Source: Candidatus Jorgensenbacteria bacterium (GTDB taxonomy: Bacteria > Patescibacteriota > Minisyncoccia > UBA6257 > GWB1-50-10). From it: DNA of 64,000 nucleotides. Below the pieces are notes generated by a model. It was not told the origin of the DNA, did not search any database, and worked only from the letters and a program-made list of their open reading frames with translations. The stretch covers positions 16,650-80,649 of the forward strand of contig JAZDPW010000024.1 in the NCBI GenBank assembly GCA_043797305.1. The letters run 5' to 3'. Shown here one piece after another: positions 21,480 to 63,779 of this stretch; within the stretch, counting starts at the first letter, position 1; the number at the start of each line of letters is the position of its first letter. The position numbers and the translations under genes were made by a program.

Positions 21480-21920
21480 TCAGGTCGCGCCGACCGGTCG
21501 GCCGGCGGGAACGCCGCGCATCGCCTCCTTCTCGACGACCTCCGTGCCACGGTAGGCGCGGATCATCATGATGATGGCGAGAATCAATGCCGCGATCTCC
21601 GTCTTGTAGAGAAACGGCGCGCAGAGGTTCTCCGGCACCTGATACGTCTCGCCCGCGTGGACGACGATGTCCATGTCGCTCGGACCCTTGAGCCACCGAC
21701 TCGGGTCACTGAGCGCCTTGTTGCCCCTCACCATCGGCCACCGGTACCAGCGGCCCCGACTCAGCCAGCCAGAGACACCGGAACCCGCACAGAGGGCGTT
21801 GGTAGCTGACGCCAAGCTCTCGCCTTCCTTGAAGGTATGAGTCAGCGGCAGGTTGTACCTCGACCCGGTGGCTGCGACGAGAGCGAGCGCGAGTAAAACG
21901 AGAAACCAGTCCGTCTTCAC
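21480..21920 (-). CDS. secreted/membrane-anchored hypothetical protein (GC-rich island)
   Basis: GTG start with AAGGAGG 4 nt upstream. Signal peptide VKTDWFLVLLALALVAATG and a C-terminal hydrophobic segment. High GC3. Confidence 0.55.
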   Translation of the reverse strand: MKTDWFLVLLALALVAATGSRYNLPLTHTFKEGESLASATNALCAGSGVSGWLSRGRWYRWPMVRGNKALSDPSRWLKGPSDMDIVVHAGETYQVPENLCAPFLYKTEIAALILAIIMMIRAYRGTEVVEKEAMRGVPAGRPVGAT

Positions 21921-21954
21921 TGTGCCTCCTTGGGTCAGAGTTGGACTTGTGCTG

Positions 21955-22034
21955 TCCTTAGAATGAAAAAATTTGAACAACCTGTCAAGTTTTTAAAATG
22001 GAAGCGGGGAACCGATGTTGAGTCGGCTCCCCGC
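21955..22034 (-). promoter_or_regulatory. intergenic cassette: terminator hairpin of the LysM gene, then a TTGACA -35 and a conserved CAAATTTTTTCATTCTA block upstream of gene 21480..21920
   Basis: Minus strand: GCGGGGAGCCGAC...TCGGTTCCCCGC, then TTCCATTTTAAAAAC, then TTGACA-17nt-CATTCT, then AAGGAGG-4nt-GTG. Confidence 0.5.
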
Positions 22035-22080
22035 TTTTGCTTCCGCTTGTGCTTTCCGCCTTAGTAGGCGGGTTCCCTTG

Positions 22081-23448
22081 TTAGGAGGCCGCAGGCGTCT
22101 CCACGGTCTCGGGCTCCGGCGCGGACTGGATGTCCGGCTCGGGCTCGGCGACGGGCTCGTCGACCCCTGCGAGGGTCGCGCGCCCGCTGAAACCGAGGAA
22201 GTTCGCGCCGGGCTCGACGGGCGCCTTGGTCTCGATGACGACATAATCGCCCTCGATGACCGGCTCGTCATCGAGGAACCCGATGACGCGGTTGCCGACT
22301 GCCCGCACGGTGACCCGCCGGCTCGCCTGCCGCCGCGCCCGCTCGGCCTGCTCGACGGCCTCCCAGTCGGGGGCCGAGTGGATAGCGGCGTACTCGAACG
22401 GCTCAATGAGCGCGCCCTCGATCCAGTTCCGCCGGTACTGGATCACGTTCGCGCAGAACCCGAGCACGCAGACACCCTTGAACTCGTCCACGATCTCGTC
22501 GCCCCGACGGACGACGACGTCCAGGATCCATCCCGGCTCGCGCACGAGGACGACCTCGCGACGCGTGTCGTCACCGTAGGTCACCTCGAAGGTCCGACCG
22601 GGGCGCGACGAGATGAGGACGCGCCGTTCGTTCTGGCGCTCGAAGGTGAGATCGAACATGTCCGCGCCCTGGTGAAGACGCTGGTAGGCGGCCTGTGCCG
22701 CGTCGTCGAGAATCTCTTCTCGATTCGCCTCGGTCACACCCTCGAACTGAGAGGGTGGACCAGCCATGACACCGTCCTCAACCCCATCGGGCAGCGGCGG
22801 CATGTGGCCTCGCATGATCACGAAGTCGGCCCGGCGCTGCTCGGCCAGGCGACGCTCGTGTGAGACTCGCTCATTGTCGAGCAGCTCGTCCATGTTCCTC
22901 AGCTCCGATCGGAGAGACTTGATGGTCTCCTCGAGTCTCGCGACGACCCTCCTGAAACGCCGATTGTCGGCGAAGAAGCAGACGACCGCCACGAGGGCGA
23001 TGACGAGGAGTGCCCACACCCACCAGGGGCCGAGAGAGGACGCTTCCTCTGCGCCGGCGACCGAACCGGCGGCGACGGGTACCGGCGCTTCCGAGGCCGG
23101 TACGACCACTGAGCTTGCACCCTGACATCCCACCGTGGGGATGGCGAGGTGCTCGCCCGGGAAGACCAGCACGATCTGCCGCCCGTTACGAACGGACAGC
23201 CGACCCTGCTCCTCGAGGTAGGGATTGAAACCGTAGATCTCCTCCCAGCGAAGCGCGTCACCGCACTTCTCGTAGGCGAGGTCCCAGAGGGTCGAACCCT
23301 TCACAACCACGAACTCCTCCGTGGTCACGACGACCTGCTGTGTCGGCGGCACTGCCTCATACTGGCGCAGAGCGGCCCCTCCGAAGATAAGCGGCGCTGG
23401 GATCAGACAGCCGAGGACGAAGAGCACCTTCTTGAGGAACTTCTTCAC
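22081..23448 (-). CDS. LysM domain-containing membrane protein
   Basis: GTG start with GGAGGTG upstream. Signal peptide, then LysM domain (GSTLWDLAYEKCGDALRWEEIYGFNPYL...QIVLVFPGEHLAIP), a TM helix (WWVWALLVIALVAVVCFF) and a charged coiled-coil-like segment. The plus-strand ORF 22015..22863 is its antisense shadow (GC3 supports the minus strand). Confidence 0.7.
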   Translation of the reverse strand: MKKFLKKVLFVLGCLIPAPLIFGGAALRQYEAVPPTQQVVVTTEEFVVVKGSTLWDLAYEKCGDALRWEEIYGFNPYLEEQGRLSVRNGRQIVLVFPGEHLAIPTVGCQGASSVVVPASEAPVPVAAGSVAGAEEASSLGPWWVWALLVIALVAVVCFFADNRRFRRVVARLEETIKSLRSELRNMDELLDNERVSHERRLAEQRRADFVIMRGHMPPLPDGVEDGVMAGPPSQFEGVTEANREEILDDAAQAAYQRLHQGADMFDLTFERQNERRVLISSRPGRTFEVTYGDDTRREVVLVREPGWILDVVVRRGDEIVDEFKGVCVLGFCANVIQYRRNWIEGALIEPFEYAAIHSAPDWEAVEQAERARRQASRRVTVRAVGNRVIGFLDDEPVIEGDYVVIETKAPVEPGANFLGFSGRATLAGVDEPVAEPEPDIQSAPEPETVETPAAS

Positions 23449-23507
23449 GTTCCACCTCCATATGAAATTGTGAGGTACAGAAAAACGGCTTTCACCGTTA
23501 CCTTATT

Positions 23508-23585
23508 ATTATAATTTATATTTTTGAAAATGTCAAGCTAAATTAAAAAAGAAGCGGGGGCGCGGTGTGGAAACGCACGCCCCCA
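23508..23585 (-). promoter_or_regulatory. intergenic cassette: rho-independent terminator followed by a consensus sigma70 promoter TTGACA-17-TATAAT for the LysM gene
   Basis: Minus strand: GGGGGCGTGCG...CGCGCCCCC then GCTTCTTTTTT, then TTGACA(23536..23531)-ttttcaaaaatataaat-TATAAT(23513..23508), then GGAGGTGG upstream of the GTG. Confidence 0.7.
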
Positions 23586-23604
23586 TTGCTCTTCTGCGAC
23601 CGGC

Positions 23605-23778
23605 TCACGAGATGTCCTCTCTTGCTCGCTCCTCGCGACCAATCGCCTTGAATTCCTTGACGATTGCGGGAAGGAGGAAAATCAGGAGGACAACCTTCGC
23701 TAATCGCGAAGGAATCGAAACGCAGGCGAAGAAGCCTAGCGCCACGAGAACCTCCGCGACAACTGAATTGAGCTTCAT
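23605..23778 (-). CDS. small membrane protein (57 aa)
   Basis: ATG with GAGGAGG 5 nt upstream: MKLNSVVAEVLVALGFFACV...LLIFLLPAIV. Flanked by a terminator hairpin downstream and a promoter upstream. Confidence 0.5.
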   Translation of the reverse strand: MKLNSVVAEVLVALGFFACVSIPSRLAKVVLLIFLLPAIVKEFKAIGREERAREDIS

Positions 23779-23807
23779 AACCGCCTCCTCGGGGCAAGGG
23801 TTGCTAT

Positions 23808-23885
23808 CTATAGAATGAAAAAATTGACGCGACTTGTCAAATAAAAACGAAGGAGGGGCGCGGTGCTTCCGCACTCACGCCCCTC
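23808..23885 (-). promoter_or_regulatory. intergenic cassette: terminator hairpin followed by TTGACA -35 and the same conserved CAATTTTTTCATTCTA block as at 21955..21995
   Basis: Minus strand: GAGGGGCGTGAGTGCGGAAGCACCGCGCCCCTC then CTTCGTTTTTAT, then TTGACA-17nt-CATTCT, then GAGGAGG-5nt-ATG of the 57-aa gene. Confidence 0.55.
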
Positions 23886-23910
23886 TTGCTTATTCCTCGA
23901 CGGCTTGCCG

Positions 23911-24636
23911 CTACGAACTGCGGCGGCAGTCGACGTACTCGGCCGGGTCGAGGCCGAGCTCAACGAGATCGAGTCCCCGCCGGCAGGCCTTGAAGGCGAT
24001 CAGGTCGACCACTTCTTCGGCGCCGCTGACCTCGAGAAGCTGCAGGCGGACGTCGTTCAGGACAGCCCGCTTGAACTCCGCGGACGTCGTGCCGATCGCT
24101 CCCAACTTGCCGTCTCCGTCGCTCCGGAAGAAGATGGAAACGCTGTTGGACTCGAAGACGTTGCCGGGTGGGTTCAGGAGGTAAGCGATCTCCTCAACGA
24201 CATCGAAGGGGTCGTCGAGATAGACGAGTTCCAACCCTCCGTCGGCGAGCGCATGCCAGTGGCACGGTTCGGCCTTGAGCCGGACCAGCCGCGGCATGGA
24301 GAGAACAGCGAGGAACCTCTTCGCGAGTTCCCGCCGCTCGACCTCCGCGAGCGCTTCGGAAACCGTCGGTCTCTGCGCCGGCGGAGTCCGACTCTCCTCG
24401 ATGAGCTGGTTGGTCGACTCGACTATCCGGTCGAGGCGAACCCGCTCGCGGCAGATATCCACGAACTGCCGCTCATAGTCGGAGGGCGGAGTCGCGTAGA
24501 CGGTCTCGATCTCATCACCTACTCTCGGCGTCAGCGTCCTGCCGACCGCGATGTAGATCATGATCATGAGAGATAGCGCGCCGAGTGTTGCGGCGGCGGG
24601 CTTGAGCCACACCGGGAGCCTCTTCATGGTACCCAT
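23911..24636 (-). CDS. membrane-anchored hypothetical protein
   Basis: N-terminal anchor MGTMKRLPVWLKPAAATLGALSLMIMIYIAV. High GC3 on the minus frame. The plus-strand ORFs 23834..24184 and 23863..24576 are judged antisense shadows. Confidence 0.55.
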   Translation of the reverse strand: MGTMKRLPVWLKPAAATLGALSLMIMIYIAVGRTLTPRVGDEIETVYATPPSDYERQFVDICRERVRLDRIVESTNQLIEESRTPPAQRPTVSEALAEVERRELAKRFLAVLSMPRLVRLKAEPCHWHALADGGLELVYLDDPFDVVEEIAYLLNPPGNVFESNSVSIFFRSDGDGKLGAIGTTSAEFKRAVLNDVRLQLLEVSGAEEVVDLIAFKACRRGLDLVELGLDPAEYVDCRRSS

Positions 24637-35045: not shown

Positions 35046-36200
35046 CTATTTTTTATTCTTCTCGGATTTACCTGAATTAAGTAGTTTCTTGGGTACTCGC
35101 GGTTCTTCTTCAATTCTTTTTATTCCTTCGCCAACAGGAATATTACCACCAAGGTCATTGATTCGATCTATTTCGGGTCGTACTCTAGTTTCAAAGGAAC
35201 CGATAGCTTCGTTAAACTTTTTCGTCGCCTGTGAAATATTTAGACCTATTCCGCCAACATGACCAAAAAATGTTTCCAATCTACCTTTTAATTCCTCAAC
35301 CTCATTTTTAATCTTCGTTGCATTTTCTGTAACTCTGTACTGTTCCCATCCATTACGGATTAAAAGTATCAGCGGTATTATTATAGACCGACTTGCCAAC
35401 ATTACATTCTTACTTTGGGCTTCAGAGTATAGATCATTGTCGTGTTGAAGAGCTTCTAGTAATGCACTTTCAATCGGGACAAACATAACTACATATGGAA
35501 TTTTCGTGTCAACATATTTCTGATATTCCTTACTCGACAAATCCCTAATTTTCTTTCTTAGGCCGTCAATAAAATTCTCGATGTGCTTAATTCTTTCTTC
35601 TGGTTGTTCTTCTTCGCGTGCTTTCTCGAACTCATACAAACTTGCCAAGCTCGCTTTGGAATCCACCGCGAGGGTCATCCCTCCTGGAAGACGAATAGTA
35701 AAATCTGGCCTTAAAATAGACGAACCTTCACCCGAAACAGTTTCTTGAACATCAAAATCCGTTCCTTTGGCCATCCCCGCTTTCTCAAGTAAATTACTTA
35801 GGGTTGCCTCTCCCCATCTGCCTATAGCAGTACCACTGGAAGAAAGCACCGTCTTGAGCATCTTGGCTGAATCGCTTATTTCCTGACCAGTTTTCAGAAC
35901 TTGCCCAATGCCGGCAACCAGTTTACCCACTTGTTCGTTTTGTTCCTTCTCCAACTTATCAACCCTCGTTCCTACCGATTCAACCAGATTTTTAACGTTT
36001 TTTTCCGCGTCGCCGAATTTCGTGCCAGCTAGTCGCAGAAAATCCTCCGAACTTTGGCGGAGGACGTCGCCTGCAATAACTTTAAATTTATCCTCAAGTT
36101 CCTCCGGGCTCTTTCCTTTACGTTTAAATAAGAACCAACCCGCCAATAAACCGATGACGCCACCCACAACAAACGATATTAAAAACTCTAAATAGATCAT
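35046..36200 (-). CDS. rmuC: DNA recombination protein RmuC family
   Basis: N-terminal TM helix, long coiled-coil, and the RmuC core with TAIGRWGEATLSNLLEKAG (cf. RGNWGExxLERVLE). 384 aa. The start overlaps the stop of the upstream gene (ATGA). Confidence 0.75.
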   Translation of the reverse strand: MIYLEFLISFVVGGVIGLLAGWFLFKRKGKSPEELEDKFKVIAGDVLRQSSEDFLRLAGTKFGDAEKNVKNLVESVGTRVDKLEKEQNEQVGKLVAGIGQVLKTGQEISDSAKMLKTVLSSSGTAIGRWGEATLSNLLEKAGMAKGTDFDVQETVSGEGSSILRPDFTIRLPGGMTLAVDSKASLASLYEFEKAREEEQPEERIKHIENFIDGLRKKIRDLSSKEYQKYVDTKIPYVVMFVPIESALLEALQHDNDLYSEAQSKNVMLASRSIIIPLILLIRNGWEQYRVTENATKIKNEVEELKGRLETFFGHVGGIGLNISQATKKFNEAIGSFETRVRPEIDRINDLGGNIPVGEGIKRIEEEPRVPKKLLNSGKSEKNKK

Positions 36201-38977
36201 TTTAGGGAGTCCTTAATTTTTTGAACTTCGGTGCTTAGTTTTAAATCAATCGTAAGATTATTCTTGATCTTCTCATAAGCATATATTGCCGTAGTATGAT
36301 CGAAGCCAAACAGCTTGCTTATAGACGGGAAAGACAAACCGATTAAATCACGAAGTAGGTAAACGGCAATTTGTCTGGGAATAGCCACGTATGCTTGCCG
36401 TGTCCTTCTCTTTATTTCAGAAACACTAATTCCATAAAATTTAGCCACATTGGCGATTATTCTTTCCTGCAAGCCGAGTAAATTATTTTCCCCTTCTTTT
36501 ATTAGACCCCATCCCTTTGCAGGGAACTTAGCGGTTTGCTTGTATCCATATTTTTTTTCGAGCGCACCTTCTATAATCTGCCTAACCCTCTCTCTTGTAA
36601 TAGGTTGGAATTTTTTAGCGATTTCTTCTAGGGTATGTGGTCTTTGCTCATTTAACCCGAATTTAAGCTCAACCATAAGTTTTTCTCTATCCCCAAGGCC
36701 CTCAGTTATCGTTTTCCACGGGGCATATTGAGTTTTCTCGGCTAATTTAAGTTCTTGCTTCTCCAAATAATTAATCTCTGTTACGAAGTGCTTATAAATA
36801 GATGGGCCGTATTCGTACTTTTTTTGAGAAATGTAGTAAAGCACATCGTAATCTGATCTCTTAGGCAAGGTTCCTTTCTGGATAGCTTCTGGGATCGTTA
36901 CGTTTAACGATTCATTTAGTATTGTTTCTGCTAAGTAAAGTTGTGCAATCGTTGATTTCTCAACGTCAGATTTCTTAGGATTTTCCCCAAAGTACTTAAC
37001 ATTGATGGGGTGGTTTGGGTTAATTAGAATGAAACTGCACGTTGGACTTTCCTGATAAGGATCATATGTGGCCTGGAATGGCATAGTGACTTTTTCATCA
37101 AAATCCCAACCCCGAAATTTGCCAACGAGCCCACTGGGATTTCTAACGGGTTTGTCTTTAATATCAACCCTGGCTTGGGCAGAGTATTCTTTACAATACG
37201 CCTCTATGATTCCAGATTCTTCTGTTTTTTCTCCGATAAAAATAACTGGATATTTAACAATCACTCCGTGCCTGAAATGTTTAGGAGACAAGATGAGCTT
37301 TTGGAGTTTAAGTTTTATATATTTATTTGAACTGGTGAATTTGATCTCGTCACCATTTTTAACGAATCGTGAATCTATGTATAAATTCAGTTTACTTTCT
37401 CTGTTAACAATTGCGCTGAAATAGTCGGGGCTAAAAGCAATACTATTTTCTGGATAGAAAATGTCCTGATGTATAACGGTAACTACCACAGAAGCTTTCC
37501 TTCGTTCAAACGTAGCTACTAACGTGTCTACGGTTTCCGGTCGCGTGCCATAGATTGTAACTGTCTTGATTAAAATATCATCAGCATCTTTATTTGGTTT
37601 TTCGACTTTTATTAATTCCGGAGTAAAGCCAATACTTTTCTTAGAAGAATTTACTCTTATAAGAGAACCTGGTTTAATGACCCGCGTATCTATAGCAAGT
37701 TGGAGCCCATATTTTTTCTTAGCTGTAATCATAATTTGACCTCTGGCGAATTCAATGCCACCTGCCGGTCTTTTCTTGATCACCGCCCTAATCGTCCCAC
37801 TAGCATTTTCGCCTGTAAGTTGAGAATACAATTTATTAAGTTCGTCGAATGCAAGCTTGTGTCTTTCTTGAGTTTCCTCTGACAACCCATCATTGGTGAG
37901 ATTTCGACGCCCTTTATTTAAAATCGGGTATAGCCAATCCTTAATAATTTGTTGTAAGTTTTTATAAAACTCGTGCTGTTGATTAAATCCATCGCGCGTA
38001 TCTGACAGTATTTCCTCAGGATGTTTTTTGCTATTAATCTTAGCCAGAATTATTTCTCTTACACCCGTCAATCTCATGAAACCGTAATACTTATCTGCAC
38101 CAGGAAAATTATCCAAACCGAAAAAGGTCTGATCATATACAGCATCCTTATCGTCATAGACCAATAATCCACTTTCTCTTTCGTCACCAATCATCGATAA
38201 AGGATTACTTGATCTATAGAGGTCCACATCTATTTTTACTGGGGCATAATTTTCAAATTGCATAGGAAATTCTTTGTGTTCCACTAGCTCTCCCTTCTGA
38301 GGGACATATTTTATTACAGCCTCTCTTTTCCCCCCTTTCCGGTTTGTATGCTGTAAAATAATTCTTCGATTATCATTTGTGTTTATTAATCGGAGCGTGT
38401 AAAAACCACTTAGTTTATCGGCCATGTTTTCAAATTCATGGAGGACAGTATCTTTATCGGCAATGAACTCAACAACCGTTCCACTCGAGGAATTTATTCC
38501 CCACTCTTTCGAGAGTATGTTTATATCTTTTCTAATTCTCTCAACATTGATAAATCTTTTTTCTCCTCTCTCATAAAATTTACAAATTGAAGCTTCACCA
38601 TCCTTAATGGATTTAATTGTGCCTTGAGAGTGATAGAAAAGGACATCGGAAATGCCTTGTCCAAATATTCCTCGCACGCCATATCCCGCATAAGCTCCAC
38701 TTTTTTCTGCCCCATAAGTTTCAAATTTATTCTCGAGACCCTTAGTCGTCATACCTTCTGCTTGATCGATTATCCGGACCAGCCGACTCTCCTTGTTTAT
38801 CTGGATAATAATTGGATGTATTGCCTCATTATTGTTGCTTTTAGTTGTTAAAATACGATAACTATCATCAGAATTTGTTATTGGCTCTGTGAGCGTCTTA
38901 AGAATGTTTTTACCAACAGCATTTGAGCTCTTGCGTTTTATATAGCGTGATGCAATTTTGACTTCTATTTCTGACAT
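36197..38977 (-). CDS. 926-aa multidomain protein: N-terminal GHKL (Bergerat-fold, HATPase_c-like) ATPase, large unknown middle, then a sigma-70 region-4-like HTH, then a DnaA domain-IV-like DNA-binding domain
   Basis: GHKL motifs: N-box TEPITNSDDS (ExxxNxxD), G1-like IIDQAEGM, G2 GYGVRGIFGQGIS, SSSGTVVEF. Near the C-terminus, TLEEIAKKFQPITRERVRQIIEGALEKK matches sigma-70 region 4.2. The final 90 aa, ISVSEIKRRTRQAYVAIPRQIAVYLLRDLIGLSFPSISKLFG-FDHTTAIYAYEKIKNNL, align with DnaA domain IV (...[46 protein letters not shown]...). Confidence 0.6.
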   Translation of the reverse strand: MSEIEVKIASRYIKRKSSNAVGKNILKTLTEPITNSDDSYRILTTKSNNNEAIHPIIIQINKESRLVRIIDQAEGMTTKGLENKFETYGAEKSGAYAGYGVRGIFGQGISDVLFYHSQGTIKSIKDGEASICKFYERGEKRFINVERIRKDINILSKEWGINSSSGTVVEFIADKDTVLHEFENMADKLSGFYTLRLINTNDNRRIILQHTNRKGGKREAVIKYVPQKGELVEHKEFPMQFENYAPVKIDVDLYRSSNPLSMIGDERESGLLVYDDKDAVYDQTFFGLDNFPGADKYYGFMRLTGVREIILAKINSKKHPEEILSDTRDGFNQQHEFYKNLQQIIKDWLYPILNKGRRNLTNDGLSEETQERHKLAFDELNKLYSQLTGENASGTIRAVIKKRPAGGIEFARGQIMITAKKKYGLQLAIDTRVIKPGSLIRVNSSKKSIGFTPELIKVEKPNKDADDILIKTVTIYGTRPETVDTLVATFERRKASVVVTVIHQDIFYPENSIAFSPDYFSAIVNRESKLNLYIDSRFVKNGDEIKFTSSNKYIKLKLQKLILSPKHFRHGVIVKYPVIFIGEKTEESGIIEAYCKEYSAQARVDIKDKPVRNPSGLVGKFRGWDFDEKVTMPFQATYDPYQESPTCSFILINPNHPINVKYFGENPKKSDVEKSTIAQLYLAETILNESLNVTIPEAIQKGTLPKRSDYDVLYYISQKKYEYGPSIYKHFVTEINYLEKQELKLAEKTQYAPWKTITEGLGDREKLMVELKFGLNEQRPHTLEEIAKKFQPITRERVRQIIEGALEKKYGYKQTAKFPAKGWGLIKEGENNLLGLQERIIANVAKFYGISVSEIKRRTRQAYVAIPRQIAVYLLRDLIGLSFPSISKLFGFDHTTAIYAYEKIKNNLTIDLKLSTEVQKIKDSLK

Positions 38978-38982
38978 ATTAG

Positions 38983-39633
38983 TTATTGAAACAGGTTTTT
39001 AAATTCTTTCTCTAGCCAGTCCAAGAACGCTAGGACTTTTTTATTCTTAGCCGCCGCGGCCGATTGTTTTAGCTGTTCAAGGTATTTAGATAATAGGTGT
39101 TGGGGAGTATACGGCACAGCTTTCAGGAAGGACAAAACTTCGTAATCAGTAACCGAAAAATCCTTGTTTTGCCATTTTTGGAACAAATGAGATTTTTCCA
39201 TTTCTAAAACGTCATCTTGCGGAGATCGTCCGCGCGAACGTTTTGATGATGAAGCCGCACTTAGTTTTAGTCTGGTGGGATGTTTTAGTAGATCCTCAGT
39301 TTGTAATGCAACCTCCTTTCCCGTTTCTGTCAGACAAAATCCATTCTCGATGTTACCGGTTGCCCAATTTTTTCGTTTAGGATCCGCTAATCTTCTAAGG
39401 GACTTATTGATCCTGTTCGTATCTGGATACTCTTTGAAATTAGCCATGGAGAATTTATTTGGAAACATTTTGAAAAGACCAACAACTATGTGATCGAAAT
39501 ATAGGGGTATTTTTTTTCTTTCTAAGACGATGAGGCTATAAACCACCAATCTGTCCAAATCAAAATTTTCGTAGCTCTTAACAGAGAGTGGTCTGAAACT
39601 AAATATTATTTTTTTGTAATCGATGTTTTTCAT
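38983..39633 (-). CDS. hypothetical protein (216 aa), second gene of the AT-rich operon
   Basis: Long ORF in an AT-rich context, 6 nt upstream of the 926-aa gene, and overlapped by the 72-aa gene by 4 nt. No motif recognised. Confidence 0.45.
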   Translation of the reverse strand: MKNIDYKKIIFSFRPLSVKSYENFDLDRLVVYSLIVLERKKIPLYFDHIVVGLFKMFPNKFSMANFKEYPDTNRINKSLRRLADPKRKNWATGNIENGFCLTETGKEVALQTEDLLKHPTRLKLSAASSSKRSRGRSPQDDVLEMEKSHLFQKWQNKDFSVTDYEVLSFLKAVPYTPQHLLSKYLEQLKQSAAAAKNKKVLAFLDWLEKEFKNLFQ

Positions 39634-56778: not shown

Positions 56779-57711
56779 CTACGCGCTTATAACGTGCTGC
56801 ATCTGCATTTCCTTTTTGGAAAGGTAGAAAAACAAACCAACGACGAGAAAGGTGACAAGGGGCGGCACCCAAGAGTAAATGTGGAGCCCGAAACTTTCGA
56901 AAATCATTATTAATCCCAAAAATCCCACCGAATACATCGCGCCGTTTTTGAGATAAGCGTATTTCCTTACGGTTTTAACTCCGTGAATCGTGAAATACCG
57001 GACTATAAACGCGCCGAGCCCGTTACCGATAAGAATAAGCGGCACGGAGAGGGTGAAAGCGAAAGCGCCGAGGATACCGTCGATTGAGAACGCCATATCA
57101 ATGAGCTCCAAATAAAGAATCTTGCTGATGTCGGTCATACGCCCCTCCGTCAGTTCTTTTTCCTTTTCTTCGGCGTTTTTCTTAAAACCGCTCACAATAA
57201 AAAACGCCGTTGAGCCGATAACGGCGCCGAGCGAGATTAAGGGGTCTGTTTTTATCGTCGACCAGACGATTACGAGCAAAATGATTGAAGCAAGGGCGTA
57301 AAACCAAAAATGGTAGTGCTTGTGAAGGTGGCGTTCGAGAAAGAAAGCGTATTTCTTGGTTTCGATGAAAAGCCAATGGAGAAAAAGGAAAATCAGGAAA
57401 ACGCCGCCGCCGGCAAGTAAAACCGGTGCCTGGCGCTCAATAACTTCGGCCGCTTCCCCGCCCGATTGAAAAGTTGCCGTAAACGCGTCAACGATGCCGA
57501 TGCCGGGTGTCGATAAATAAATGATGAGAAGCGGCAGAATGCCGCGGACCACGAAAACGGCAAACAGAATCCCCCAAAACAGGAACCAGCGCCGCCATTT
57601 TTCCGACATGCCGACCAGGACGTCAGCGTTAACAACAGCGTTGTCAATGCTCGAAATCGTCTCGAAGAGAACGAGTCCCAAAACAACAACGATGATTTCA
57701 CTTAAACCCAT
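56779..57711 (-). CDS. TerC family integral membrane protein
   Basis: Polytopic. TISSIDNAVVNADVL-type motif characteristic of TerC/YkoY proteins. Confidence 0.5.
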   Translation of the reverse strand: MGLSEIIVVVLGLVLFETISSIDNAVVNADVLVGMSEKWRRWFLFWGILFAVFVVRGILPLLIIYLSTPGIGIVDAFTATFQSGGEAAEVIERQAPVLLAGGGVFLIFLFLHWLFIETKKYAFFLERHLHKHYHFWFYALASIILLVIVWSTIKTDPLISLGAVIGSTAFFIVSGFKKNAEEKEKELTEGRMTDISKILYLELIDMAFSIDGILGAFAFTLSVPLILIGNGLGAFIVRYFTIHGVKTVRKYAYLKNGAMYSVGFLGLIMIFESFGLHIYSWVPPLVTFLVVGLFFYLSKKEMQMQHVISA

Positions 57712-57729
57712 TGAAGTTTTATTTAAGCA

Positions 57730-58044
57730 TTACTTCTTTTCTCCGCCGTATCTATTCTTGTCGCGTTTAATGACTTTATCGAAACTTTTTCTTACGGCTT
57801 TGTCCAAATCGATATTGTTAGAGTTTGCGAAGCAAATGAGAGTATAAATAATGTCCCCGATTTCTTCTTCCAGTTCCTGTTCTTTCTCGTCGCTTTTTTT
57901 CGGCTTGTCGCCGTAGAGGTGATTGACCAGTCTCGCGAACTCGCCACATTCCTCATAAAGTCGCGCCAAAATCGACAAAGGCGACCAGTACTTCCAATCG
58001 TTTTCCTTAAACCACTTATCCAGTTCTTCCTGGTACTTTTTCAT
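57730..58044 (-). CDS. MazG-like nucleotide pyrophosphohydrolase (YpjD-type, ~100 aa)
   Basis: EExGE...EExGDxxYTLICFAN...IDLDKAVRKSFDKVIKRDKNR. Matches the all-alpha NTP-PPase pattern. Confidence 0.7.
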   Translation of the reverse strand: MKKYQEELDKWFKENDWKYWSPLSILARLYEECGEFARLVNHLYGDKPKKSDEKEQELEEEIGDIIYTLICFANSNNIDLDKAVRKSFDKVIKRDKNRYGGEKK

Positions 58045-58273
58045 ACGTATATATTAACGCAGTGGATTTTGTAGTGTTTGTTTGAAAAAGTCAGAACCCA
58101 TTTTGAACGGAACTGACCGTCTCCGCTTCCCGCCTGCGCCAAGGCTTCGGCGGGCAGGCGCTCCGGCGGGACGCCCGGGCGAATTTCTGAAAAGGCGATT
58201 GCAGATGAATTTTAGCAGAGAAAATTCAAAAGAAAAAGACCGATCGGTTGTTACACCAATCGGCCACCTCGTA

Positions 58274-59134
58274 TTAGAGGATTTTGTGAAGAACATCCGC
58301 GTAGGGCCTTCCGTCCATCGGCAACCCGACAACTTTCCGGCCGAGGTCTCGGCAAAGAATCGGTCTGCCGGAGTACCGCTCGATTTCATCAAACAGAGTT
58401 GCCGTTTGATGAAGACAGAAACGCGAGAAACCCATTGCCTGTTCGGAGGGGATGGACGCCCAACTTTCCGGCTTGCCGAACGGAAGGAGATACGGAACAC
58501 CGACGTTGTCGCCGCCAACGAGAAGCCGTCCCGAGAGCGGCACGCCGGGGTAAAAATCGCGTTCGCACACTTCGTCAATAACTTCATCGTAAGTGCGAAC
58601 GCAACGGATCTCTCGCTTCGTGCCGTTGATGCGATTGATTCCCTCGACGATTCCGATACCGGCGCAGATGAGCGGCACACGAATGTGTATTCTTGAGAGT
58701 AATTCGATGATTCTCTCAAGAAGCGCACCAGTGAAAACCACATCATCTACAACCACCACTTCGCGCACACCGCTCATCTGCAACCGCCTGATTTGTTGAG
58801 CGAGTGGCGGCGTTCCAGCACGATGGCCTAGTCCACGCGCCTTTCCATCTCTGTCCACCAAGCGAGCGATTTCAATATTGAGTTCGCTCTCAAAGTAGAC
58901 GCGATCCAGCGATAGCGCGGGCAGACCGCTCCCCAAGACCAATTTTGCAAGACCGCGAGAAATTTCATCCTCCGAGACAAACTCGAAGTTTGAAAAAATG
59001 CGGCACATGTAGTCCGAGAATTCTCCCCGCAGTTGGGAGAAGAATTCTCTCGCGGGCAACACGAAGCTGTGTTGCGTTGCCCACTTTTCCATCAGCGAGT
59101 AGATGTCAGCTGACACGACATATGGCTTGTCCAT
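58274..59134 (-). CDS. phosphoribosyltransferase (type I PRTase) domain protein
   Basis: PRPP-binding motif VREVVVVDDVVFTGALL. Start taken at MDKPY, with AGGAGG 5 nt upstream. The gene is visibly GC-richer than its operon neighbours. Overlapping ORFs 58054..58746 and 58082..58696 are rejected. Confidence 0.6.
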   Translation of the reverse strand: MDKPYVVSADIYSLMEKWATQHSFVLPAREFFSQLRGEFSDYMCRIFSNFEFVSEDEISRGLAKLVLGSGLPALSLDRVYFESELNIEIARLVDRDGKARGLGHRAGTPPLAQQIRRLQMSGVREVVVVDDVVFTGALLERIIELLSRIHIRVPLICAGIGIVEGINRINGTKREIRCVRTYDEVIDEVCERDFYPGVPLSGRLLVGGDNVGVPYLLPFGKPESWASIPSEQAMGFSRFCLHQTATLFDEIERYSGRPILCRDLGRKVVGLPMDGRPYADVLHKIL

Positions 59135-59241
59135 GACTTCCTCCTTTTTGTGTTTGTTAAAGAACTCTCCCTTCCCAGAAATAAAAAATCCCTTCTGGGA
59201 AAAGATTGAACGCGGAGGAGTGCAAAAAATATTTAACACCG

Positions 59242-60003
59242 CTAACCACAACCAATCTCTTCCAGGAAGAGTTGATTGTGATGGTGCTTATTTTGGGCGG
59301 AAAGAAACGCCGAAGTTTTCTTCACGGCATATTTTGCGCTATCAAGAACTTTCGCTGTTTTTGCATAACGCAATACAAAGTAAGCAAAGAATGTATCGCC
59401 AGCTCCTATCGTATTTTTGCTTGTGATGATTTTCGATGGTTTAATGGTGTGACGCTTACCGAAAGCAAAAATTTCACATCCTAGTTTGCCATCTGTGATT
59501 AACAAAAGTTTTTGTTTTTGAGCTTCTACATATTGCTTCGGCATATTTTGTAATTCCTCTTTTGTACCTTTGAGGCAAAAAATATTTGCAAAAACTTCCT
59601 TATTCGGCTTCCAAAATTTTTTCTTCCCAAAATCATCACCATTTCTGACATAACCTTGAACATCCAAAAATACTCTGCCTTTGAATGTAGATAAATTCAT
59701 TAAATCGAACTCATCGAGTACGGAAGAAATAAGCAAAAGGGGCGTTTTGATTTGAGAAAACCGAACCCCTTTTTGAGTAGGTCTTTTGAGGACTCTACCA
59801 AATTCTCCTTTTCTTGTTATTAAAATTTGGACTTTCATTTTGGGTCCGGTTTTCATGGCGAAAGACACCCCTTCATTTTTTAGAGCCCGATTCAGATAAA
59901 AAGCAGGCCCGCCATTTTGCTTATCAATGATGAAGCCGTTTTCACTAACAAGCTGATCGGTAGCGAATGTAGAAATAATTGTGATTTTATTTTTTTGTGC
60001 CAT
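59242..60003 (-). CDS. PfkB family carbohydrate/nucleoside kinase (ribokinase-like)
   Basis: C-terminal GAGDTFFAYF (PfkB GAGD signature). Start MAQKNKITIIS overlaps the upstream gene's 3' end by 17 nt. Confidence 0.65.
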   Translation of the reverse strand: MAQKNKITIISTFATDQLVSENGFIIDKQNGGPAFYLNRALKNEGVSFAMKTGPKMKVQILITRKGEFGRVLKRPTQKGVRFSQIKTPLLLISSVLDEFDLMNLSTFKGRVFLDVQGYVRNGDDFGKKKFWKPNKEVFANIFCLKGTKEELQNMPKQYVEAQKQKLLLITDGKLGCEIFAFGKRHTIKPSKIITSKNTIGAGDTFFAYFVLRYAKTAKVLDSAKYAVKKTSAFLSAQNKHHHNQLFLEEIGCG

Positions 60004-60544
60004 ATTTTTGCCTTCCCAACTTAACAGCGAGATCAACTGCTTCTTTAGGATTTTTGGCAACTTCAATTTTTATTCTGTTTCGGCTATCAAGATATTGGCC
60101 TCCAAGTTTTTCACTCCAACCTCCAGTATTTTTTATTACCACAATAGGGATATTTGCTTGATAGGCGATAGCAATTTCTGTGAGCGTTCCAGAGCCGCCG
60201 TTCAGCGCAATTATAGCATCACAACTTAAAACAAGAGTTAGCTCTCTGCCGCCGCCGCGTTCAAGCCCGCTTGCAATAACGACATCAACATTCTTTTTCT
60301 CAAAAATATCAAAACCTTTTCCATAAGTTACGCCGATAGTAAGACCGCGGGCCTTCTTTGCCCCGCGGCAGGCGGCAGTCGAGAGAGAATCGTAATCTTT
60401 TTCCGCGCCAAAAATCAGAGATGCTCCATTTTTGGCAACCCAATATCCGATTTCTTCCGCCAGTTTCTCAAATTTTTTTGAGTATTTGAGATCGGCGACA
60501 GAACCCATTACTCCGATTTGTAGTTTTCTTGATGATTTTTTCAT
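59987..60544 (-). CDS. LOG-family/TIGR00725-type Rossmann-fold protein (SLOG, nucleotide N-glycosidase-like)
   Basis: GVMGSVAD...LNGGSGTLTEIAIAY (PGGxGTxxE-type LOG motif). 185 aa. Confidence 0.6.
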   Translation of the reverse strand: MKKSSRKLQIGVMGSVADLKYSKKFEKLAEEIGYWVAKNGASLIFGAEKDYDSLSTAACRGAKKARGLTIGVTYGKGFDIFEKKNVDVVIASGLERGGGRELTLVLSCDAIIALNGGSGTLTEIAIAYQANIPIVVIKNTGGWSEKLGGQYLDSRNRIKIEVAKNPKEAVDLAVKLGRQKYGTKK

Positions 60545-60585
60545 ATGATTACTTTAGTTTAATAAAGCGACGTGGACAAAAAAAT

Positions 60586-60924
60586 TTAGCGATTCTCTTT
60601 CAACCTTTCCAAGATAAGTTTATAACCACCCATGCCCTTTTTGAGCCATTTATGAACTCGGGCAATAGTGGTAGAACTCATTCCGGTTTCTTGTGCAATT
60701 TTGGTGTAGCGCATTCGCTTCGCCAACATTCGAGCCACCTTCCACCTTTGACCGAGTTCCACTAACTCCTTTTCGGTGAGCAAGTCCCTGAAAAATCGAC
60801 GAGCTTCGTCAACGTCTTTTAATTTAAGAATAACTCCAAAAAGGGCGTCCGTATCTTGGTTTATCCACCTATTATGTTTGTTCTTGACTTCTTTCATACG
60901 CTTTACTATGCTAAAGTGTAGCAA
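60586..60924 (-). CDS. TrpR-related YerC/YecD family protein
   Basis: About 110 aa, LLTEKELVELGQRWKVARMLAKRMRYTKIAQETGMSSTTIARV, matches the YerC/YecD HTH pattern. Confidence 0.6.
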   Translation of the reverse strand: MLHFSIVKRMKEVKNKHNRWINQDTDALFGVILKLKDVDEARRFFRDLLTEKELVELGQRWKVARMLAKRMRYTKIAQETGMSSTTIARVHKWLKKGMGGYKLILERLKENR

Positions 60925-61060
60925 GGAATTAAATTTATGTCAACTTTGCAATCGCCTTTTCAAAACCCCCTGGAATTTCTTGGCGAAAACCAATGCCGAA
61001 GAGTCCTTCCTTCGTCAGGATAAACTCCGCCCCGAGGCAACTTCTTCGGCAAATCAAATT

Positions 61061-61134
61061 TGGTGGACCTAGCGAGAATCGAACTCGCGTCTCGACAATG
61101 CGAATGTCGCGTCATGCCACTAGACCATAGGCCC
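61061..61134 (-). tRNA. tRNA-Ala (anticodon CGC), 74 nt with encoded CCA
   Basis: Hand fold: acceptor GGGCCUA/UAGGUCC with G3:U70 wobble (Ala identity element), 3-bp D-stem, anticodon stem CGACA/UGUCG with loop UUCGCAU, T-arm GCGAG-UUCGAUU-CUCGC, discriminator A, CCA. Confidence 0.65.
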
Positions 61135-61167
61135 CTGCCTACCGACAGGCCGGGCATTTTTTAGATA

Positions 61168-62259
61168 TTAACGGACCTTTGGGGAAATTGAAAGACTGAC
61201 CAAGAAATCCGCGAGGATGCGACTGTATTTTTCCAAACTGGGAATATCGACCCATTCTTCGTCGCTCGCTATTCCCCCGCCGACCGGTCCGAATTCGACT
61301 CCCGGACAACCAACAAGCGTGAAATGTCTTGCGTCCGAAGAGCCGTTTGCGGAAAGCACATTCACCCGCTTTTTCGTGAGTTCTTCCGTCTTTTTCTTTA
61401 GGAGCCGGAGGTAAGGGTTTTTGGCGTCCGTTGCAAGCGCCGGTTCCTTTACTAAAACTTCCAACTTTAGACCTTTGGGAAGAATCTTCTTTAGGTTACC
61501 GACGATTTCTCCCCCTTCTTCCGGAACGTAACGCACGTCGAGCCAAACTTCGCAATCGTCGGGTATTTTATTGAAAGCCTTATTATTCGTACCGATCTTC
61601 GCCACGTTCACGGTAGTGACCCATTTCTCTTTTTCGGGGACCGGATAGTGACTCTCCAGGTTTTTTAAGAACTCGCTGATTTTCCAAATCGCATTTTCTC
61701 CCCGCCAGGGGTAGGCGCCGTGAGCCGTTTTTCCTTTTGCCGAAACTTTTGCCCAAAGAATTCCCTTTGCCTTGTTTTTAATGTTGAAGTCGGTACTTTC
61801 TGCGGCAATAACGAACTCAGCCCCGACTCCTTTTTCTATCTGATATTTCGTGCCGTCGAACCCTCCCACTTCCTCGTCGGTTACAAGCTGCAACCCGAGC
61901 GGATAATCGATTTTCTTCACGACCTCCTTAAAGACGGCAATGAGGCAAGCCACATTCGCTTTCATATCCATGGAACCGACCCCGTATAGCCGGTTACCTT
62001 TTATCCGGGGCAGATATTGGTTTTCCTTACCCGGAATCACATCCAGGTGGCCGTTTAATATGACTTTGAATTTTTTCGGCCTCTTGGGCGTATTGTAAAT
62101 AAGGGCGCTTTTCACGCCTCTGCGTTCGAACTTCTCGACCGTGTATCCTTTCAGGTCCGACAGAGCAAGGTTCAATGCTTTTTCTAAAGCCTCCCTGTCA
62201 TCCGGCGTCGATTTCATCGAAATCAATTTTTTTGCCAGAGGCAATATTTTTTTCAACAT
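61168..62259 (-). CDS. M20 family metallopeptidase (ArgE/DapE/LysK-like)
   Basis: 363 aa. GHLDVIPG, GVGSMDMKANVACL, VTDEEVGG, and a dimerisation-domain insert. Paralog of 1..837. Confidence 0.75.
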   Translation of the reverse strand: MLKKILPLAKKLISMKSTPDDREALEKALNLALSDLKGYTVEKFERRGVKSALIYNTPKRPKKFKVILNGHLDVIPGKENQYLPRIKGNRLYGVGSMDMKANVACLIAVFKEVVKKIDYPLGLQLVTDEEVGGFDGTKYQIEKGVGAEFVIAAESTDFNIKNKAKGILWAKVSAKGKTAHGAYPWRGENAIWKISEFLKNLESHYPVPEKEKWVTTVNVAKIGTNNKAFNKIPDDCEVWLDVRYVPEEGGEIVGNLKKILPKGLKLEVLVKEPALATDAKNPYLRLLKKKTEELTKKRVNVLSANGSSDARHFTLVGCPGVEFGPVGGGIASDEEWVDIPSLEKYSRILADFLVSLSISPKVR

Positions 62260-62378: not shown

Positions 62379-63779
62379 TCAGGGCTCGATTTCCGCACAG
62401 ACCGTGGACTTCGAACCGTGGTTCCTGCCTTTCTCCGCCTCCACAGAGTCGAGGGGCATGAGCGACCGGAGACCGCCCAGGAACCGAGGCGCTCCGTTGG
62501 TGAGAGAGAGGAAGTTCCGGTCGATGAAGTTGTACCCTCTCCCTTCGGTCTCGTTCCACACCACTGGAAGCGAGAGCTCCACCTGAATAACGTAGGAGCC
62601 GCGCTTCTTGAGATTCCGGCGAAGCTCGGAGCGGAAGTCCCGGTCCGAAAGCGCTCCGCTCACATGCCCGTAGCACCCGTAAGTACCTTTCATGGGCTTG
62701 CAGCGGAGAAACACCCGGCCTGCTTCCACTTCCCCGACGCTTACCCCGCACGAAACGAGGTATCGTCTCATACCGAAGGACAGGCGAGAACCGTCTTCGA
62801 ACTCCGCATACGACTTCCCTTCCGCCACGTGCCTCGCGAACTCCGGAGAGTAAAAATCCTCCTCGCTCGCGATCGGGCAGGCCATACCCATTGAAGGCAT
62901 GTACTCCTTGGTGTCGTTGATCCTCCTCGCATGCTCCATCCCGGGCGCATCGACGTTCAGGGTGAGAGTGTGGGCCTTGATGACCCGCCGCACTCCGGAG
63001 TCGCCGAGAAGCGGGTGCTCGACCTCGATTTCCGGCCTCTTAAGCTTCCGGACAGGGTCGGAGGTACGGGCATACAAGAGGCAACCGCACTCGCCTCCGT
63101 TCTCTTCGAGATGCTTCCGGAAATCTTCCGGACCGAAGAACCGGTCGAAACCGGAAAGCTCAAAGACTTCGGCGTCGGAGAGAGGTTCGCCTTCCTCCTT
63201 GCCGAATTCCGACTCCCGCATTGCCCTGTACTTCTCGTCGGTGACCGCGAGGAGTGCAATCGGTTTGCCAAACCTCTGCCGAAGTTCGGCAAGCGAAGTC
63301 CGGAACTGGCGCCAGAAGAACGTCTCCTCGCCGTTCCACGCAAATATCCGCTCGAGAAGTTGGTACATGGCCAGCGAATTCTCGAATTCGAAGACCATTC
63401 CCCGCAGAACTTCTCGCACTTCGGCGACGCTCATCTCGGATGCGGTGGCGAGGAAGTCCGACGACAGACCGACCATGTCGACCTGAACACCGAAGTTCAC
63501 GGGCGAGCCACCGGGAAGCCGGCAGTACCGATAGTCGGTTTCCCATTCCCGGTTCGCCTCGATGAGCGGATCGAACGCCCGGTTGTACTCGATGTAGAGC
63601 TCTCCGAGCGCCCGGATAATCGCATCGGGATACCGAACCCGGTATTCCGAGAGGGCGAAGAAGGGGCTAAGAGAAGAGCGGATATCGCTCTTCTCCACCA
63701 CGGGACCCAACGCGGCCTGCGCCGGGCCCCACGCTTCTCCGTCCAAGGCAGCGAAACCATTTTTGCTCTCGAAACTCAT
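62379..63779 (-). CDS. conserved hypothetical protein, putative ATP-grasp-type amide ligase; paralog of 896..2191
   Basis: 466 aa. LRCKPMKGTYGCYGH, SYVIQVEL, shared blocks YNRAFDPLIEANREWETDY, GKPIALLAVT, RRINDTKEYMPSMGMA. The 3' overlapping ORF 62278..62751 is rejected. Confidence 0.45.
   Translation of the reverse strand: MSFESKNGFAALDGEAWGPAQAALGPVVEKSDIRSSLSPFFALSEYRVRYPDAIIRALGELYIEYNRAFDPLIEANREWETDYRYCRLPGGSPVNFGVQVDMVGLSSDFLATASEMSVAEVREVLRGMVFEFENSLAMYQLLERIFAWNGEETFFWRQFRTSLAELRQRFGKPIALLAVTDEKYRAMRESEFGKEEGEPLSDAEVFELSGFDRFFGPEDFRKHLEENGGECGCLLYARTSDPVRKLKRPEIEVEHPLLGDSGVRRVIKAHTLTLNVDAPGMEHARRINDTKEYMPSMGMACPIASEEDFYSPEFARHVAEGKSYAEFEDGSRLSFGMRRYLVSCGVSVGEVEAGRVFLRCKPMKGTYGCYGHVSGALSDRDFRSELRRNLKKRGSYVIQVELSLPVVWNETEGRGYNFIDRNFLSLTNGAPRFLGGLRSLMPLDSVEAEKGRNHGSKSTVCAEIEP

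Follow-up and report, generated by a model that had tools for sequence, protein, structure and literature searches.

The locus described here raises the question of what a compact group of genes for nucleotide- and ribose phosphate-type enzymes does in a bacterium of the candidate phyla radiation (CPR) and to what cue the group responds. It lies on the minus strand of a 64-kb stretch of DNA from Candidatus Jorgensenbacteria (Patescibacteria/CPR); the whole of this stretch was analysed and is referred to as the window, and all coordinates are positions within it. A sequence-only reading had placed four open reading frames (ORFs) here, at 59987-60544, 59242-60003, 58274-59134 and 57730-58044, and had taken them for the genes of a LOG-family protein, a PfkB kinase, a phosphoribosyltransferase (PRTase; gene, PRT) and a MazG pyrophosphohydrolase, joined in one operon that would serve either nucleotide salvage or a nucleotide-based conflict or signalling system. 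The four ORFs and the 17-nt overlap between the LOG and PfkB genes are borne out, and the fold assignments are roughly right: the products are a LOG-like protein of SLOG cluster 4 resembling TIGR00725, a compact ribokinase-family kinase, a very divergent protein of type I PRTase fold and a YpjD-type MazG, with scores below the cutoffs of the true LOG models and of the PRTase model PF00156. The outline of the operon and its proposed role have changed. From its regulatory architecture, as read from sequence, and from its link with histidine in related genomes, we suggest with moderate confidence that the locus is a histidine-starvation-induced phosphoribosyl-handling operon of Patescibacteria.

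The transcription unit differs from the one first described, which had taken four genes as a single operon and had left out yerC (60586-60897), the upstream gene of the same unit. A predicted sigma-70-type promoter at 60915-60943 (minus strand) combines TTGACA, a 17-nt spacer and TACACT with an extended TG; it is a consensus match only, agreeing at 10 of 12 positions, and is the top promoter-like site between 57500 and 61300. The genes from yerC to PRT are tightly packed or overlapping, and the putative intrinsic terminator that ends the operon (58228-58265, minus strand; GGCCGATTGG...CCGATCGGTC and then TTTTTCTTTT) has an 11-bp stem with 6 GC pairs and a T-run, is the best terminator-like site of the region and lies 9 nt past the PRT stop codon, with a spacer of 229 nt to the MazG gene. 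The operon appears to run as yerC(hisR-like)-LOG-PfkB-PRT, from the promoter near 60943 to the terminator near 58238, and MazG is placed outside it because the promoter and the strong terminator bracket these four genes.

The composition of the unit in relatives was drawn from 80 loci, designated by L-numbers, in genomes with a PRTase homologue, all of them Patescibacteria except for evident mislabels; a gene was counted as linked if it lay no more than 6 kb from the PRTase gene. The tight LOG-PRTase linkage implied by the earlier description stands, the LOG gene being linked at 59 of the 80 loci and mostly adjacent. A conserved order of four genes is not seen, as PfkB is linked at 11 loci and MazG at none; YerC is linked at 34. 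The order Trp_repressor > LDcluster4 > PRT recurs with unrelated flanks in two independently annotated loci, and PfkB has been cleanly deleted or left as a remnant in several relatives, on which evidence it is an accessory gene of the cassette.

Two independent His-specific devices carry our interpretation. The first is the product of yerC (minus strand, 103 aa), a hisR-like regulator of the TrpR family that matches TIGR02531 (YerC/YecD) with 86.4 bits against a required 42.2 and Pfam Trp_repressor with an E value of 6e-23, and whose best match in the PDB is HisR of E. eligens (3G1C; E 5.8e-19). YerC is HisR, an L-histidine-dependent and often autoregulatory repressor with the 20-bp operator consensus cacTTTAnnnnnnTAAAgtg (PMC9413887). 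A palindrome of this type, which we call O1 (60899-60918; CACTTTAGCATAGTAAAGCG on the minus strand), departs from that consensus at one position, overlaps the -10 box just before the yerC ATG and keeps its position in relatives; a second, O2 (60550-60569), is situated between yerC and LOG, which are 41 nt apart, at a distance of 5 nt from the LOG ATG, and has an equivalent approximately 8 nt upstream of LOG in L002-L008, L016, L043 and L081, the last an independent locus with the same operator arrangement. The operator core, CTTTA-N6-TAAAG, occurs exactly twice in the 64 kb, both times flanking yerC, where 0.11-0.17 occurrences would be expected; across the 80 loci there are 42 exact-core sites, compared with approximately 2 in shuffled sequences, and 34 of the 42 are found upstream of yerC or LOG at a distance of no more than 30 nt. 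DNA recognition by YerC looks conserved.

The yerC-LOG spacer takes another form in some relatives. In L013, L018, L023, L027, L031 and L050, YerC carries a His run at its C-terminus (for example, ...NLHHHNSSKFE) and a strong terminator, with a hairpin of -8 to -19 kcal/mol, lies in the spacer, whereas clades in which YerC has no His tail, that of the window included, have the second HisR-type operator in this spacer instead. The His tail with its terminator and O2 look like two interchangeable ways of placing LOG under similar control.

The second device lies before PRT. Three consecutive His codons (CAC CAT CAC; 59278-59286, minus strand) stand in a leader that in this genome is the in-frame C-terminal tail of PfkB (...SAQNK-HHHNQLFLEEIGCG, then stop); the last 13-14 residues of the kinase would be the fused leader peptide, and this tail (residues 241-253, with pLDDT below 50) is the only part of the kinase model predicted to be disordered. 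The candidate attenuator RNA (59178-59282, minus strand) comprises helix 1:2 (59282-59245; -18.8 kcal/mol), which includes the His codons and is 83% paired across 16 aligned sequences; an antiterminator, helix 2:3, formed by region 2 (GGAAGAGAUUGG; 59263-59252) and region 3 (CCAAUCUUUUCC; 59209-59198), with -28.8 kcal/mol when region 1 is masked; and a terminator hairpin 3:4 (59207-59187; -6.5 kcal/mol) with a U-tract at 59186-59178, which is 98% paired, with 2 compensatory pairs, in the same 16 sequences. The antiterminator is 91% paired in this alignment, against 33 to 64% when the helix is slid, and double changes occur at 4 of its pairs and in 11 cells, where shuffles give 3.0 +/- 1.4 and 0 of 500 reach the observed value; in these controls the helices were derived from the same sequences and the shuffles ignore phylogeny.

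Relatives show how this leader behaves when its surroundings change. The approximately 150 nt upstream of PRT are conserved at the DNA level even in relatives without PfkB, where the same region is a free ORF of 25-30 aa (M...HHHxQLFLEEIGCG, then stop); in distant lineages all but the His run changes (for example, ...HHHHASSGVI or ...HHHISSFREEINFG, each at the stop codon), and the run is found on whatever gene stands before PRT, be it PfkB, YerC or HAD. Two adjacent His residues occur in the C-terminal tail of 44 of 120 PfkB homologues. An ORF with HH near its end and a stop codon 60-140 nt before the downstream start precedes 29 of 54 PRTase genes and 39 of 669 control genes (p 1e-18). Of 27 leader regions, 25 contain a terminator and U-tract; the terminators fall into at least three versions of unrelated sequence, and the 3' part of each leader is complementary to its own version. 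They are stronger in relatives (-9 to -20 kcal/mol) than in the window. No riboswitch, T-box or Rfam His leader was found upstream of PRT by Rfam, which in 57600-61300 returned just a tRNA-Ala at E<=1, and nothing else in the window reached a gathering score.

The enzymes under this control are recognizable by superfamily. The LOG-like protein (185 aa) matches Pfam LDcluster4 (PF18306) with 103.4 bits against a gathering threshold of 26.3, over residues 7-169 and positions 1-150 of the 151 in the profile, and its homologues are annotated likewise. The sequence-only reading had posed a choice between TIGR00725 and TIGR00730, and the former is clearly the better: it is the best NCBIfam match, full-length, with 78.9 bits and an E value of 2.8e-22, although this is under its cutoff of 106.9, while TIGR00730 reaches 27.8 bits (cutoff 96.35) and the LOG model PF03641 17.5 (cutoff 27). 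The LOG-type motif R...D...GGSGTLTE is kept, and in the form R(E)...CD...GGSGTLTE is invariant across 60 CPR LOG-like sequences, so that the catalytic Arg and the Glu of PGGxGTxxE are retained; the nearest solved relatives are not LOGs, being the molybdenum cofactor (Moco) proteins 6Y01 and 2IZ5 and TM1055. The protein is 74-92% identical across CPR phyla. A second LOG gene with canonical motifs (GGSDVGLM..., GGTGTLDE) lies between hisD and hisG in L063 (2069-2752, minus strand), in a cluster that also holds the SLOG-cluster-4 LOG-like gene.

The PfkB-like kinase (253 aa) matches PF00294 with 37.3 bits against a required 25.8, a match that covers the C-terminal 97 residues only, and contains TIGAGDTF; its model (pLDDT 90.8) shows a complete compact ribokinase fold, for which Foldseek finds archaeal and Thermotoga myo-inositol kinases closest (TM 0.72), followed by ribokinases, at 14-17% identity. 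The equivalog models for ribokinase, 1-phosphofructokinase, nucleoside kinase and hydroxymethylpyrimidine phosphate kinase gave 33 bits or less against cutoffs of 205-450. For the PRTase-like protein (286 aa), one of a family of approximately 1,000 clusters at 50% identity, the fold was taken from the structural model because a profile search against PDB sequences gave just weak matches to the loop that binds phosphoribosyl pyrophosphate (PRPP). The model indicates a PRT core fold with a PRPP loop, an acidic dyad followed by S/T-G; the dyad and two loop arginines are kept, and among 134 diverse representatives the conservation of R91, R105, D130, D131 and G136 is 96% or higher. The PF00156 score was 19.9 bits against 26.3 (22-25 for a few homologues), and the conserved C-terminal region (DExCERDFYPGxPxxGR, PYxxPFGxPxxWASIP) matched no PDB structure. 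An exact-sequence look-up of the window protein gave no recorded entry. An Fe-S or Zn site like that of B. subtilis PurF was considered and rejected, since of the cysteines C190 (99%) and C240 (87%) are conserved among the 134 representatives and C178 and C261 are not. Longer PRTase-like paralogues (approximately 310-390 aa) sharing DHDFFPF/CERDFFPG and PYxLPF...WA(S/N)IP motifs lie near the main copy in L033, L045, L046, L052, L064, L068 and L070.

In the scheme that we propose, YerC would presumably bind and, in response to ample histidine, repress at O1, over the -10 box of its own promoter, and at O2, before LOG. With charged tRNA-His, a ribosome translating the leader would reach the stop codon and cover region 2, the terminator would form and transcription would end before PRT. 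With uncharged tRNA-His, the ribosome would stall at HHH and mask region 1, leaving region 2 to pair with region 3; this pairing would keep the terminator, a hairpin with its U-tract that lies 50 nt ahead of the PRTase start, from forming, and the PRTase would be made. The enzymes would then make, phosphorylate and cleave a 5-phosphoribosyl N-glycoside linked to histidine supply: the PRTase would form the N-glycoside from PRPP, the LOG-like protein would cleave the ribotide to base and ribose-5-phosphate, and PfkB or other kinases and HADs would interconvert riboside and ribotide.

The neighbourhoods of the cassette in relatives extend the connection with histidine. Histidyl-tRNA synthetase (HisRS) is encoded in 28 of the 80 loci, bona fide HutH in 12 (TIGR01225, 651 bits against 539) and true his genes (HisG, HisE, HisI, HisD or histidinol-phosphatase) in 5. 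L063 reads histidinol-phosphatase < HisD ... HisG > LOG > PfkB > HAD > PRT > HisS; L068 has PRT > HisS and then HisG > HisE; and HisI is present in L073 and L074. Further clustered neighbours are two HAD phosphatases with weak nucleotidase similarity, APH-like kinases, a GNAT protein, an IU-nucleoside hydrolase and a uridine-phosphorylase-like protein. HAD (cluster c4) and GNAT (c8) domains are each found fused to the PRTase (P0248 and P0262), and LDcluster4 is found fused to PfkB (P0440); as far as gene structure can indicate, such fusions tie the accessory enzymes functionally to the core LOG-PRTase pair. A protein of approximately 350 aa that has no Pfam match (cluster c31) is encoded between his or LOG genes and hisS in the Saccharibacteria-like loci L073 (1372-2430), L074 (876-1859) and L059 (3499-4707).

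Because some lineages have true his genes interspersed in the module, the biochemistry that we prefer lies on the nucleotide side of histidine metabolism, in the supply of PRPP and adenylate and in the disposal of ribotides of the type of 5-aminoimidazole-4-carboxamide ribotide (AICAR). Alternatively, the enzymes may perform a ribotide-mediated step in histidine salvage or generate a starvation signal; any single biochemical version should be taken as tentative at most. Published reconstructions describe CPR bacteria as "auxotrophic or contain novel pathways", and a broader idea, speculative and on the whole unlikely in our estimation, is that they have an unrecognised histidine-linked pathway. 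Its core would be a PRPP-dependent transferase particular to the lineage, together with a LOG-like phosphoribohydrolase, and kinases, HAD phosphatases and a GNAT would serve it interchangeably. Such a pathway would be either a ribotide route for making or salvaging histidine or the source of a base or nucleoside signal that draws host nutrients, and would be governed by a HisR-type repressor and a graftable His attenuator.

Several observations weigh against a histidine-starvation-induced operon. HisG, HisD, HisE, HisI and HisB-N are all absent from the 64-kb window, and Parcubacteria, including the complete RAAC4 genome from which L027 derives, are reported to be without most amino-acid pathways (PMC4508563; PMC3812714), which makes the role of a histidine-controlled enzyme pair hard to place; the AICAR/adenylate idea in particular presupposes a histidine pathway, which may be missing from most carriers. 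The co-repressor of YerC may not be histidine itself, because residues of the presumed effector helix differ from those of Firmicutes HisR: FFRDL is invariant in the window and 34 loci, against FFEDV in 3G1C and 3FRW, and R or K occupies two further acidic positions. Neither device is universal, given the share of loci with YerC and of PRT upstream regions with a His-run leader (29 of 54). Attenuation may be leaky or vestigial in this genome, since the window terminator, which includes two G.U pairs, is weak and the leader is not a short peptide but the end of an ORF of 253 aa, and the pairing statistics carry the limits stated with them. Finally, the LOG-like, PfkB and PRTase proteins belong, by their sequences, to known superfamilies and to no defined functional family, the PRTase failing every curated sequence model.

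The base composition of the locus bears on its history. The sequence-only reading had seen in PRT a GC-rich, horizontally acquired gene that had displaced an original one. Relative to the window (GC 0.494; 51 genes with a median GC content at third codon positions, GC3, of 0.590 and an interquartile range of 0.55-0.62), the local contrast between PRT and its neighbours is real, but the outliers are the AT-rich LOG (GC 0.418, GC3 0.328, robust z -4.7) and PfkB (GC 0.370, GC3 0.335, robust z -4.6) genes, whose GC3 values are lower than those of all other window genes, with yerC at GC 0.423, GC3 0.471 and robust z -2.1. PRT itself is typical (GC 0.537, GC3 0.596, 51st percentile, robust z +0.1), and is as close to its counterparts in relatives, by DNA identity, as LOG and yerC are to theirs. 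The idea of a foreign PRTase fails because its composition matches the window average, and PRT has no separate history because the whole block yerC-LOG-(PfkB)-PRT (approximately 58203-60949) is 82-89% identical at the DNA level to that of other Parcubacteria (L001-L003), in unrelated flanks.

Transfer of the whole cassette among CPR is another matter, and horizontal transfer in one form or the other seems to us a possible, if rather unlikely, account of the composition. The identity of the block to L001-L003 far exceeds the 33-63% seen for other proteins common to the window and these loci, the flanks differ in every genome, and a pattern of low GC3 in LOG and PfkB and higher GC3 in PRT recurs whatever the GC of the locus, with PRT above LOG in 45 of 59 loci. 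High identity could also result from very strong purifying selection, and LOG-like proteins hold at approximately 65-70% identity even where PRT falls to 35%; no mobility genes flank the cassette in the window. Because the internal GC pattern recurs in relatives, the composition is best described as a property of the cassette, arising either through cassette transfer among CPR or through unusual constraint. A gene for a XerC/D-like tyrosine recombinase adjoins the cassette in L005, L018, L023, L031 and L079, with a HisR-type palindrome upstream of it in L018, and the L081 cassette abuts MutH, N6_N4 methylase and HTH_31 genes; these neighbours hint at possible cassette mobility.

Generic purine or pyrimidine salvage, the first of the two functions originally put forward, would make the PRTase an ordinary nucleobase PRTase, the LOG-like protein a PpnN-like nucleotide nucleosidase and PfkB a ribokinase or nucleoside kinase, with the histidine signals incidental. 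The nearest folds to the PRTase (APRT, OPRT and XPRT) favour it, as do the IU-nucleoside hydrolase, the uridine-phosphorylase-like protein and the nucleotidase-like HADs among the neighbours in relatives and the absence of de novo nucleotide synthesis from CPR bacteria (PMC3812714). None of the curated APRT, HGPRT, OPRT, UPRT and ComF models by which a substrate might be predicted reaches its cutoff with the PRTase (20.5 against 146 for the APRT subfamily, 17.3 against 200 for archaeal HPT and 17.5 against 233 for ComF), and the family carries approximately 150 additional residues along with an acidic/Cys motif that is invariant and peculiar to it. Enzymes of nucleotide or ribose phosphate type are therefore upheld at the level of fold, but plain salvage leaves two independent His-specific devices and the HisRS, HutH and HisG neighbours unexplained, and we regard it as improbable. 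If salvage serves histidine metabolism, it overlaps the histidine-responsive operon that we favour.

The histidine signals would lose their meaning if the His run and the palindromes were non-regulatory, the HHH...GCG tail being a part of PfkB or a small conserved peptide and the hairpins ordinary intergenic structure. The C-terminus QLFLEEIGCG is indeed conserved beyond the needs of a classical leader, the window terminator is weak and the pairing controls are not phylogeny-aware. As set out above, however, the tail becomes a free ORF when PfkB is absent, moves to the tails of YerC and HAD with only the His run kept and is disordered in the kinase model, and covariation is seen in the pairs of both terminator and antiterminator, which turn up again in versions of unrelated sequence. 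The RNA helices fall on the stretch that encodes the conserved peptide, whose conservation is thereby explained by constraint on the nucleotides, and we consider a non-regulatory origin very unlikely.

SLOG-superfamily and PRTase domains reportedly recur in predicted conflict systems (Burroughs et al. 2015), and a few of the PRTase homologues touch the Pfam PRTase-CE model, but a nucleotide-based conflict or signalling system assembled from SLOG, PRTase and MazG domains has almost nothing left to recommend it, because PADLOC-DB gave no defence match for any of the five proteins (PRTase_III-A reached an E value of 0.002 with no passing stretch), MazG is unlinked, neither an effector nor a sensor NTPase or toxin-like partner is present, and the genes are core-like, occur in single copy, are extremely conserved and vertically widespread in CPR and come under regulation of the amino-acid type.

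The MazG protein that had been counted as the fourth member (minus strand, 104 aa) is a nucleoside triphosphate pyrophosphohydrolase closest to B. subtilis YpjD, with 59.5 bits to PF03819 against a threshold of 22 and PDB matches to 5IE9 and 2GTA at E values of 1e-25 to 1e-27. Its gene lies past the terminator, 18 nt upstream of a DUF475 gene, and on these grounds it is an unrelated neighbour of the ordinary house-cleaning type. Its candidacy as a HisE analogue was rejected, the scores for TIGR03188 and PF01503 being 16.7 against 42.7 bits and 18.2 against 21.3 bits, and its similarity to the HisE of L068 is not significant. The spacer between the operon terminator and MazG contains a GC-rich imperfect inverted repeat (58125-58174) that is unique in the window. 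On the other side of the operon, a tRNA-Ala(CGC) gene (61061-61134, minus strand) lies between the gene for an M20 (ArgE/DapE-like) deacylase and the yerC promoter, and the ORFs that overlie it are spurious. Directly upstream of the M20 gene is a compositionally atypical orphan ORF of 466 aa (62379-63779, minus strand; GC 0.60, GC3 0.75, robust z +2.9) with neither a Pfam nor an NCBIfam match. Elsewhere in the window, two compositional islands, at 21480-24636 and 35046-39633, depart from the median GC3 of 0.59, one being high in GC (GC3 0.77-0.84) and the other low (GC3 0.34-0.38, including a 926-aa gene).

The CPR, whose members are tiny and depend on hosts, make up a large share of bacterial diversity, and the locus, which recurs throughout them, bears on how they are supplied with amino acids and nucleotides. 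Two of the most conserved CPR proteins of obscure role, the LOG-like and PRTase-like proteins, sit behind signals that would name their cue, histidine or the charging of tRNA-His, so that an anonymous pair of hypothetical proteins becomes a testable hypothesis. Neither a HisR regulon nor a His attenuator in CPR was found in the searchable literature; our interpretation would bring HisR and attenuation of the classical type into a radiation whose regulation is almost undescribed, and would also point to an evolutionary trick, whereby regulatory His codons are borne as the disordered C-terminal tail of whichever gene lies upstream.

Comparison with known systems places each enzyme near, and outside, a functionally defined family. 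The LOG-like protein has in common with the LOG/PpnN phosphoribohydrolases (TIGR00730, PF03641) a Rossmann-like SLOG fold and the Arg...Asp...GGxGTxxE motif, but scores far under their cutoffs and has the CPR-specific GAEKDxDSLS in place of GGGxGxMG. Its highest sequence similarity is to the TIGR00725 family (E 1e-12 to 7e-11), with which LDcluster4 is common and which includes the Chlamydomonas Moco carrier 2IZ5, the Rippkaea Moco-binding protein 6Y01 and T. maritima TM1055 (1RCU), yet it falls below the NCBIfam cutoff and has other operon partners. Moco metabolism would not be expected in CPR organisms. The kinase resembles the compact ribokinase-family enzymes T. kodakarensis myo-inositol 3-kinase (3W4S) and T. 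maritima TM0415 in its short length and GAGD anion-hole motif, and they are its best structural matches, but it has a low sequence identity to them and matches no equivalog. Among type I PRTases (APRT, OPRT, XPRT and UPRT), just approximately 125-130 of the 286 residues of the window protein can be aligned, and the unique C-terminal region of its family carries the invariant residues D187, C190, R192, D193, F194, Y215 and W225. With the ATP-phosphoribosyltransferase HisG/HisZ, the PRTase would have in common a PRPP-dependent, histidine-regulated first step, and its gene often adjoins a HisRS(-like) gene in relatives, but the folds are unrelated, HisG being a type IV PRTase. A simple replacement of HisG is judged unlikely because true HisG co-occurs with the PRTase, in 4-5 loci (L025, L063, L068 and L073).

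The regulatory devices have closer counterparts. The HisR (YerC) regulon of Firmicutes, Actinobacteria and Synergistetes (PMC9413887) has the same TIGR02531 regulator, the 20-bp TTTA-N6-TAAA operator and an autoregulatory site at the regulator's own promoter, whereas the CPR regulon holds LOG-like, kinase and PRTase-like genes rather than his or transport genes and its regulator differs in the presumed effector helix. Like the enterobacterial his attenuator (hisL) and other amino-acid attenuators, the CPR element has a reading frame with consecutive His codons, mutually exclusive helices 1:2, 2:3 and 3:4 and a terminator with a U-tract before the regulated gene; unlike hisL, it has 2-4 His codons, would control a PRTase-like gene and not histidine biosynthesis, has no Rfam match and, in its CPR hosts, is often an in-frame extension of the gene before it, at the C-terminus of PfkB, YerC or HAD. 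The regulatory devices are thus of known kinds, and what sets them apart is their CPR setting, their non-his targets and a leader that can attach to the C-terminal end of any gene before it.

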